Shown here: positions 22,868-25,800 of the stretch, piece after piece
Layout: each line of letters starts with the position of its first letter
Numbering within the stretch: the stretch's first letter is position 1
Assembly (NCBI GenBank): GCA_964106645.2
Contig: OZ067040.1
Strand: one strand, 5' to 3'
DNA length: 64,000 nucleotides
From: Podarcis pityusensis
Taxonomy: Eukaryota
Notes under the pieces: generated by a model
What the model saw: only the letters and a program-made list of their open reading frames with translations
The model's database searches: none
Told to the model about the DNA's origin: nothing
Made by a program: the position numbers and the translations under genes

Positions 22868-25800
22868 CTGAAAAAGAATAAAAAATGGATCTGGTCAGTA
22901 AAATCTAGAAAACATATTTGAAAACAGTGAAATTAATTCTATGGCCTGCAGGCTCCCAAACAAGATCCAAGCCAAAAGCAGCATTGGGAAATTGCTGGGC
23001 CTCCCACCAGCCTGGGACAGCCTAACAAGTCAAGGGTGTCTTCCAACCTGCTTTGAAATCATTTGATAGGACATCTGTTTGATCTCCTGTTCCCTTCCTG
23101 TCTTAGAAGAAGGATGAAGACTCTTTGTTTCTTTCTTCCCTTTAAACAAACAGCAGTGGGCACCAGGCAAAATAAGTTTTCCAAACAGCTCAAGGGCAGC
23201 AGGCATACGCAGCCCTCCTCTTCCTGGTTTTAAGGTGATTTTGACCACCATTACCCCCTTAAAGGGTTCAAGACGAGACTTCTGTATCTCTTAGTTTTGA
23301 GCCCCATTTTGCTTCCAATGTGTATGCAGCTGCTGAGTTGTGGGGAGGGTGTGTCTTTTTTGCTTTTAGCAGTTCCTATTTTCGTATTTAAAAAACTACT
23401 AAAGTAAAGAAAAACACAGGTATTTCACCAAAAAGAAACTCTGGGTTGAAAGTCTTAGCATTTCTTGGCTGACCAGGGTGGAGGAGTGTTCCAACATCCT
23501 CCTCAGGGATGGCCATATTTGCTTTGGGGAAAGAGTTTCCAACATGGGTGCTCCAATGCAAAGCAACTTAGAGAGCAATCCTATAGCGAGATCTGCTGGG
23601 ATGAGTGTGGGTATCCAACTGAGCCAGGAGGTTCTGGATGAAGCCAAGGTATGCCAGCTTAACTTCTTCATATGCGTCTTGGTCAGAAATAAGTTAGCGT
23701 ATGTCATTCTTCTTGGCTCAGCTGGGACCCAGCCAGCTAAGCCAAGTCTGGTTGACCGGAAAACAGGTGTAAACCCTGAAATTGGGGGGGGGGGGGTTGT
23801 CCCACGGGCATATAGCAGCAGGACCAGAGAGGGGGTACTTTGGCTAGATCATAAAACTCTCCAGCTTGGTCACATGATCTTAGAAGCCAGCATAGGTTTG
23901 GCCAGCAAAAAGGGTGATGCAACCCAAACAGTATTTTAAAGGCTTGTTTTCCCTCTGCAAGGCTTGGGGCAGCTTGGCCAGCACTTTACGCTACCTTAAC
24001 TCACGCTGGGGCTTGCTCTATGCTTGCTCTATGCTAGCTTCTTGTACCGAGGTTTGGTCCCTTCTATCACGAATGAGCTGTTATAAAAATAAAAATGGCA
24101 CACCGATGCAAAAAAAGCATATCAAGTTCTCACGGCACTACCAAAGAATGCAATACGTATGCAAGTCATCAGCTAAAATAAACGCTGCACCACACTTCAA
24201 AACATATATATGTTGCTGCCCACATTTGAGCCTGGAGCAACATATAAAAAACTTATACATTTTTTAAAATAAAAAAACGTTTTTTGCAGAAAGTTAGTAA
24301 TACACAGTTGAAGAGCATCTTACAACACAGATGGCCATGTGGGTTTTGAGAACTACATTTTCAAAATACTTCAGAAGTTAGATGCATGCATCGTTGAGTA
24401 TTTTTTGCATTTGTCGTAAAATTGCTTTTGGGAGTTTTTAAGCTGGCAGACTTTGACTGCTGAGAGAAATCCAAACAGCATGCTTTGTTTTAAGAAAGCC
24501 AATCCATTCTCCTACAGATAGTCACCCATTTACCTCTTCAGAACAAACACATCGTTATCATCATCATCATCGCTATCATCAAGATCGTTATCGTTCCCAG
24601 CATCATCAATATTAAAATCAATATCAAAATCAATATCATCAAATGACCAATCCCAGTCTCTACATGCCACATCAATTAATCTGTAAAATGAGGTTTTAAA
24701 GTTTATGAGCCACAGTCCACTAAAAACAATTCTTAATATCGCAATTAGTGCAACTTTCTCCTGATGCAGTAATGGTGACATATTGGCTGCAGTCTAGAAT
24801 CCATATACACCATTCCTGTGTGCTTTCTTAGCCCTGTCTCATCAATAAAGAATATGCAACTAACAAAGCATAGCTTTGATCTCAAGAATTGCACACACAT
24901 CCTGGAGTATGTCATGTGGTGCTTTCCCCTCCTAAGAGTGGATTAGTAGTATTCTGACACAACGTAACAATTGGGTGAACAATATTCACCTTAAAACCTG
25001 GGCTTTAAGTAAAAACTATGGGCCCTGATCAAGAAAGCCAGACTTAAAACACACACACAATGGATTTATGAGCTGCACGGATAGTAGCTAACTTTATCTA
25101 GACTGGATTACAGCAGCTCTTGTACATTTTATATTTGGCATTTCAATAGCCTTTTTGACATGAATATTCACCATAAAACTGAAATGTTATTTTATATAGG
25201 GCACAGCTGACAAACAAGGCTGAGCATGAAATGCACAAACACTGCATTTCATGCCATTCTAACAAAACAATATTTATTTATCATTAAATGACTTTTTATT
25301 TTTCTGCAAATCAATGCTGTAATGAAATATGGAATAAAAAATAAAATAGTGTAAACCAATGCAAAATCATTTAAATGTTAAGGAAGTGCCTGTTATTGTT
25401 TACATCAATTTATTTCCCATACTCTACAAGAAGCTAAATAAATTGTGGGTGAAGTAGTAAAATGCTGCCAGGATGTCGTGCTTTAGAGACCGTCAAAGAA
25501 AAAACTAAAATTGTCTTATGTGAAGTGTCCAGTGTAGTAATCTAAAAAGCAAGAAGGGAAAACCAAGGATATTAACAATTTCCCACATGCCACTCTTTAC
25601 CTGGTAGGAAAATCTTTCTTTTCGCTCGGAGGGGAGAGCTGGATTGGTTTAATTGGCCGTCTTAATGATTGGTTTGGCTGTATTTTCATGGAAGTTCTTG
25701 GTGATGATCGTGCAAACGGATCTGGTGCTGGAGCCTTTTTGGGAATCTTTTTCCCTAGGCGGCTCACCCATTTCTTCTGTTCCACTGTGGAACTGGCTAA

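Follow-up and report, generated by a model that had tools for sequence, protein, structure and literature searches.

The window that we analysed, a stretch of 64,000 nt from Podarcis pityusensis (contig OZ067040.1), carries ROCK2 on its minus strand, where 23 stretches are more than 80% identical to the wall-lizard RefSeq model, most of them at 90–100%. The preliminary description had placed an alternative exon in the last intron of this gene, and its length, phase and coordinates, its canonical AG and GT flanks and its reading frame, which stays open as left by exon 32, all checked out (Table 1). The exon encodes an R from a split codon followed by 48 residues, and the resulting acidic tail matches that of RefSeq model P0017 at 98%. 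It is single-copy in the genome: a search for a paralogous exon in the lizard's own genome returned none (two candidates scored, the second at E 5.35). We could also verify in the sequence both of the endings proposed for it, since the unspliced donor reads AG+G TAA (R-stop) and the join to exon 33 at 22867 reads AG+C TAA (S-stop). The donor of exon 32, which is common to all ROCK2 tails, follows a basic linker with a net charge of +12. In our judgement the acidic exon is very probably real and selected as a peptide.

Table 1. Features of the last ROCK2 intron and its neighbourhood (positions in the window; a slash marks an exon boundary)
Feature	Position	Strand	Details	Basis
Acidic alternative exon of ROCK2	24680-24534	minus	147 nt, phase 2-2, 49 codons including split ones	
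3' splice site of acidic exon	24681..24700	minus	short A-interrupted pyrimidine tract; acceptor ...CTCATTTTACAG/	sequence
5' splice site of acidic exon, GTAAAT	24528..24533	minus	donor GAG/GTAAAT	
Out-of-frame TGA	24538..24540	minus	4 nt before donor; putative relic of ancestral VFDF-stop	inferred
GCATG, RBFOX-type motif	24479..24483	minus	~50 nt downstream of acidic exon	sequence only
TGCATG, RBFOX-type motif	24385..24390	minus		sequence only
ACTAAC, candidate Quaking-type motif	24293..24298	minus		sequence
Second alternative exon, basic tail	23995..24077	minus	83 nt	models P0024, P0025; contig set X6
Exon 32	25601..25838	minus	238 nt; PH domain end and basic linker; ends CC AG/GT	RNA junctions
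Exon 33	22300..22867	minus	one coding base and TAA (S-stop), then 3' UTR reaching at least the stretch edge	
Exon 27' (ROCK2m muscle exon)	34803..34979	minus	177 nt with GTGACA donor; GCATG at 34704 and 34605	

Splicing of the intron was followed in four raw-read runs of a related species (of each of which 6–12% was read, with splice joints listed from a floor of three reads up) and in four contig sets that we assume to represent RNA. The skip junction 25601-22867 was covered by 14, 7, 4 and 0 reads in the four raw runs and was present in three of the four contig sets, while the fourth (X6) has the small 83-nt exon instead, joined to exons 32 and 33 (piece 19; loose ends 23995 and 24090); the skipped form thus dominates in the eight RNA sets. 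Among the sequencing runs listed by a run search, none is recorded as RNA. The junctions expected of inclusion, 25601 to 24680 and 24534 to 22867, were absent from the joints listed for the four raw runs (three-read floor) and the four contig sets. The constitutive joint between exons 31 and 32 is likewise missing from the raw-run listing, which shows that this listing overlooks real joints. One run, X23, has a depth of 4.07 over 24554-24714 and of 2.65 over 24393-24553, flanked by bins of depth 0 and set against a depth of 10–13 on exon 32; these few reads begin close to the acceptor and continue beyond the donor, and may fit either the R-stop form or unspliced RNA. All four contig sets have an in-frame deletion of 3 nt inside the acidic exon, at 24557. 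Gene models that end in ...LKS imply a junction to exon 33, and the case for inclusion is at present one of predicted models and conservation and, in lizards, not of junction reads. The tail peptide was also sought in two proteomics supplements (PMC7561204, without a Rock2 entry, as is the supplement of PMC5577920, and PMC6961840, whose sole ROCK2 row is unrelated) and was found in neither.

A tract without inclusion reads could simply be a GAT-rich, low-complexity sequence miscalled as an exon by gene predictors, and the absence of inclusion junctions among the joints listed for the eight RNA sets is what such a miscall would produce. Against this, 13 of the 38 candidates returned by a protein search with the 48 residues of the lizard exon are ROCK2 models with the acidic tail, all of them squamate, and we reject a chance tract on this ground; moreover, it is the non-repetitive motifs of the tail, and not its Asp run, that have been kept from chimaera to mammals, which brings the probability of a miscall close to nil and effectively refutes it.

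When the last 93 residues of the Anolis model were used as the query (268 of 297 candidates, 120 listed), the listed matches revealed an ancestral type of tail, in the order RLLDLAFKDWDWS, acidic spacer, DVFDF-stop, in sturgeon, paddlefish, caecilians, frogs, turtles, birds, geckos, opossum and placentals. Members of the matched clusters with an acidic tail include seals, deer, camel, a bat, marmot, mangabey and five Australian or South American marsupials, and further placental models come from squirrel, vole and the cat family. With the paddlefish end as the query (89 of 167 candidates), two sharks and a chimaera, the elephant shark, joined the set. Examples are XP_047377903.1 (squirrel), XP_011900003.1 (mangabey), XP_004914526.1 (Xenopus tropicalis), XP_042189580.1 (elephant shark) and XP_028578374.1 (wall lizard). 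Tail-bearing models of teleosts, crocodilians, salamanders, mouse and human were not among the matches listed (which, for mammals, comprise 15 of 586 cluster members). Sturgeon and paddlefish have the tail in both of their ROCK2 copies, and the lack of a tail-bearing teleost ROCK2 among the matches listed could reflect loss or divergence in teleosts.

These cross-species data consist throughout of automatically predicted gene models. Judged from them, the acidic C-terminal exon is kept across species, with orthologous tails from chimaera to mangabey, and it is far older than first guessed: a jawed-vertebrate exon of which the lizard has a derived form. The predicted non-mammalian ROCK2 isoforms with similar tails, to which the preliminary description pointed, understate the range of the tail, which placental and marsupial models carry too.

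We fetched 316 ROCK2 proteins, a set biased by having been gathered through tail searches. Among these, 135 have an acidic tail ending in VFDF, 54 an acidic tail with another end, 69 end in S, 26 in SSGPxLRIILH, two in the product of the lacertid small exon and 30 in other ways. ROCK2 models with and without the acidic tail occur in the same species. Using 57 of 66 alignment rows (nine scincoid and episquamate rows were left out), we obtained majority-residue frequencies of 0.970 for motif 1 (the first 13 residues) and 0.996 for DVFDF, compared with 0.963 for the kinase domain, 0.964 for PH-C1 and 0.889 for the coiled coil, all of these figures being inflated by the selection of rows for possession of the tail. 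The squirrel tail is identical to those of paddlefish, Xenopus and chicken in 13/13 residues of motif 1 and 5/5 of DVFDF, and to those of shark and chimaera in 11/13 and 5/5. Motif 1 follows the pattern RL[LIF][DE][LMV]x[FC][KR]DWDWS and motif 2, DVFDF, lies at the extreme C-terminus; the spacer between them changes length in frame, giving ancestral-type tails of 24–37 aa. For motif tests we assembled 81 distinct tails, 60 ending in VFDF and 21 in other ways (20 of these 21 squamate). WxW occurs in 59 of the 60 and in all 21, and L-hydrophobic-[DE]-hydrophobic in all 60 and in 20 of the 21. Substitutions within the tail are conservative, and the overall pattern is what would be expected of a pair of short binding motifs separated by a disordered linker.

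The lizard form of the tail appears to have been remodelled. Geckos retain VFDF-stop, and the tails of the cordylid Hemicordylus and of most episquamates examined end in VF[VI]LK[SR]; the models of Varanus, Erythrolamprus and Vipera end in ...LKR, the tail of Rhineura ends in DVF, and the Naja and Crotalus horridus models have other endings. The out-of-frame TGA of the Podarcis exon lies in the +1 frame, where it reads F-stop-R, and a loss of 2 nt within the VFDF codons would account for the squamate frameshift. The preliminary description had missed an in-exon stop, present after VFDF in the predicted ancestral exon and lost in the lizard lineage. A frameshifted frog model, P0130, also ends in ...FLKR, a hint that the frog donor lies at the same place. 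Non-gecko squamate tails have C in place of F ahead of [KR]DWDW and carry extra FD[IV]DF repeats. In scincoid and episquamate lizards and snakes, then, a frameshift would have removed VFDF, F would have changed to C and internal FD[IV]DF repeats would have been gained. That squamates tolerate the loss of an otherwise invariant VFDF end weakens any claim that VFDF is essential. Having phase 2-2, the lizard exon could also be spliced in frame into the 83-nt small exon; no model so spliced was seen.

The proposal that several ROCK2 tails arise from one intron is supported by the gene models, in which the S-stop, the acidic tail and basic small-exon tails are all present. The third tail, SSGPxLRIILH, is found from elephant shark to goat and in Anolis and Sceloporus (for example in proteins P0133, P0139, P0141, P0144, P0146, P0167 and P0285), has a hydrophobic C-terminus ending in His and is, by its distribution in the predicted models, as old as the acidic tail. 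The lacertid 83-nt exon occupies the place of this tail and has its first two residues alone in common with it. A relic of SSGPxLRIILH was sought in the last intron of the lizard and none was found (best ungapped score 18). On the sequence evidence, the three-way tail switch is probably old and the basic exon of the lizard diverged or replaced.

According to the accessible part of the supplement of PMC7532667, mouse Rock2 has a skipped exon of 97 nt (chr12:16982650-16982747) whose inclusion differs by 0.256 in Rbm24-knockout muscle. Because it is flanked by a 214-nt exon (the length of exon 32 as taken from squirrel) and the last exon, it lies in the same intron as the lizard acidic exon. At the same time, its length differs from the 89, 92 or 95 nt (3n+8) expected of an acidic exon whose donor keeps its distance of 4 nt from the stop, and from this misfit we think that it may be the SSGPALRIILH exon. 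The Rock2 splicing primers given in the available portion of that paper flank exon 27' and not the last intron. With regard to exon 32 itself, the lizard exon has 238 nt and the mammalian one 214 nt (the latter estimated from squirrel), and its end (25650-25601, minus strand) has gained EGFPP-like residues in episquamates and been rewritten in lacertids.

Exon 27' is the closest known parallel within the same gene: like the acidic exon, it lies next to the part encoding the PH-C1 module and is followed by RBFOX-type motifs, but it makes an in-frame insert before the PH domain, whereas the acidic exon replaces the C-terminus. In the text available to us, PMC4653301 describes ROCK2m as a 57-aa insert from exon 27' (citing Pelosi 2007) and names it as the sole ROCK2 variant, and PMC7532667 reports that inclusion of exon 27' in mouse muscle depends on Rbfox2 and Rbm24. 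In gene models the two exons occur together or apart. The lizard exon 27' has two possible GT donors 6 nt apart, giving 171 or 177 nt, and two GCATG motifs downstream.

The RBFOX-type motifs behind the acidic exon lie exactly where they had been placed in advance. Two of them fall within 150 nt downstream of the exon, and of 3529 overlapping 150-nt windows along the ROCK2 gene, 43 contain at least two GCATG. Such sites would promote inclusion in muscle, heart or neurons. Further downstream, ACTAAC is presumably a Quaking-type motif. For Rock2, the accessible part of a neural RBFOX target list (supplement of PMC5989265) contains exon 27' alone.

The first reading of the tail was that DWD may bind kinesin light chain in the manner of a W-acidic motif, or FDD[IV] LC3/GABARAP as a LIR core. 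The acid-flanked Trp is indeed nearly invariant, and W-acidic kinesin-1 adaptors such as SKIP (accessible part of PMC6214655) and LIR/AIM motifs resemble the tail in having aromatics within an acidic disordered stretch. Using general patterns for the motifs tested here (KLC, LIR, hydrophobic motif, CAP-Gly and clathrin box), we found [LM]xW[DE] in 0 of 81 tails and reject a W-acidic motif; the residue at p-2 is K, R or N in ROCK2, whereas the SKIP peptide places a Leu at p-2 within the KLC TPR groove (PMC6214655, as far as accessible). The LIR core [WFY]xx[LIV] is present in this lizard, in 19 of the 21 other-end tails and in 39 of the 60 ancestral-type tails. Yet FDD[IV] is the least conserved part of the tail: amphibians have L or V at the aromatic position, and D, G or T stands at the last one in sharks, some turtles, guinea pig and hedgehog. 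We regard binding by either route as quite unlikely.

A second way of reading the tail is as a mimic of the AGC C-terminal tail (FKxxxWxW, NFDD[IV]EDD and hydrophobic motif) that competes for the grooves of the kinase and damps the activity of ROCK or of another AGC kinase such as PDK1. Aligned locally with the rest of its own protein, the tail scores highest against the kinase C-tail in 11 of 12 species, although shuffling gave p values of 0.008–0.47, below 0.05 in 4 of 12 only, with both regions being Asp-rich. If W is accepted, FxxWDW resembles the AGC hydrophobic motif, FxxF[DE][FY], and 56 of the 60 ancestral-type tails have it; non-gecko squamate tails, that of this lizard among them, have C in place of the first F, and the pattern occurs in one of the 21 others, a frog. 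Inclusion of a C-terminal exon lowers kinase activity and aids myoblast fusion according to the available text of PMC7532667 (citing Singh 2014), which would suit a damping role, while the kinase lies ~107 nm away from the tail in a molecule described as not autoinhibited (PMC4686654, accessible part). On balance we consider such mimicry unlikely.

Other candidates were screened in the same way. A loose CAP-Gly ligand pattern (acidic residues before a terminal F/Y) fits 61 of 62 ancestral-type ends and 1 of 18 others, and is lacking in this lizard. A clathrin box was rejected (0/81), as 80 of 81 tails agree with it over the first four positions but lack the acidic residue at the fifth, and FFAT, DPF/DPW, FxDxF and WxxF patterns were found in 0 of 77 tails. 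PDB, Pfam and ESM Atlas searches with the tail gave no match, and a search of 50% representatives gave three: P0001, a snake-like fragment of 69 aa and one unrelated Asp-rich protein. AlphaFold2 models were uninformative, with a mean pLDDT of 33 for P0001 and, for P0280, an unfolded PH-C1 and a tail near pLDDT 40.

We favour the explanation that the acidic tail is a docking site that switches localisation, to which we assign a probability of roughly 60%. The optional exon in the last intron would swap a one-residue ROCK2 ending for an acidic tail with two motifs, likely included in some tissues only, and the tail would shift the docking site of the kinase and not its rate. A candidate partner would dock at two points, the DWDW motif and the free C-terminal VFDF, and the tail charge, which ranges from -8 to -16, would pair with that of the basic linker (+12) next to PH-C1 and so weaken lipid binding. 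ROCK2 is described in the accessible part of PMC4686654 as an extended 120-nm dimer that is not autoinhibited and whose output is set by position, thought to be that at which its membrane end is anchored; if output depends on position, the tail would act at the membrane end.

Instead of a peptide, the exon could serve a role at the RNA level, in which rare inclusion together with the small exon would let the ancestral stop trigger decay and so tune the level of ROCK2. Under the 50–55 nt rule for escape from nonsense-mediated decay, mRNA with the ancestral tail would escape decay and make protein, because only 4 nt separate its stop from the last junction; a second exon before exon 33, such as the small exon of the lizard or the 97-nt exon of mouse, would place that stop ~100 nt from the last junction. 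The dominance of skipping in the RNA sets is consistent with this. Conservative substitutions and in-frame spacer changes over ~450 million years, however, point to selection on the peptide, and in the lizard the stop is out of frame and the peptide is nonetheless kept, which makes a purely regulatory exon very unlikely.

Extending the docking-site explanation, one may read the locus as a three-way switch of ~450 million years between a bare end, an acidic DWDW...VFDF tail and a basic SSGPxLRIILH tail, in which the acidic tail is a two-point docking motif that would relocate ROCK2 in muscle and neurons and form part of the difference between ROCK1 and ROCK2, and which non-gecko squamates have rebuilt. 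We put this joint reading forward tentatively, at well under even odds.

ROCK2 has been studied intensively, both as a kinase and as a drug target. Its 1388-residue form, ending in ...NKPS, lacks the acidic tail, so that standard constructs would miss a selected form of the enzyme whose tail is conserved like the catalytic domain. The exon could offer a handle on what distinguishes ROCK2 from ROCK1 in muscle and neurons, and the loss of terminal VFDF in squamates would reveal which half of the motif pair is dispensable.

Predicted ROCK2 isoforms in RefSeq and UniProt encode the orthologue of the exon but give its tail no name, function or tissue assignment. We found no description of the acidic tail in the literature searched (Singh 2014, subscription papers and figure-source files may cover it), and neither the tail peptide strings nor LRIILH were found in the paper texts searched. 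PMC8766376 gave no match, and in the portions available PMC11380049, PMC5226212, PMC5840707 and 10.1101/257261 merely cite Singh 2014 or Pelosi 2007. The alternative ROCK2 C-terminus is real, ancient and apparently unstudied, and already present in automatic annotation; the value of the finding would fall if Singh 2014 had already characterised the acidic exon.

Elsewhere in the window, the kinase C-tail (~52400-51400, minus strand; ...SNFDDIEDD) looks like a miniature of the alternative tail, a likeness that is statistically weak. Short interspersed repeats at 23965-23932 and 26535-26348 attract reads from elsewhere, and repeat-like copies resembling them lie near 55700-55300 and 33200-32800.
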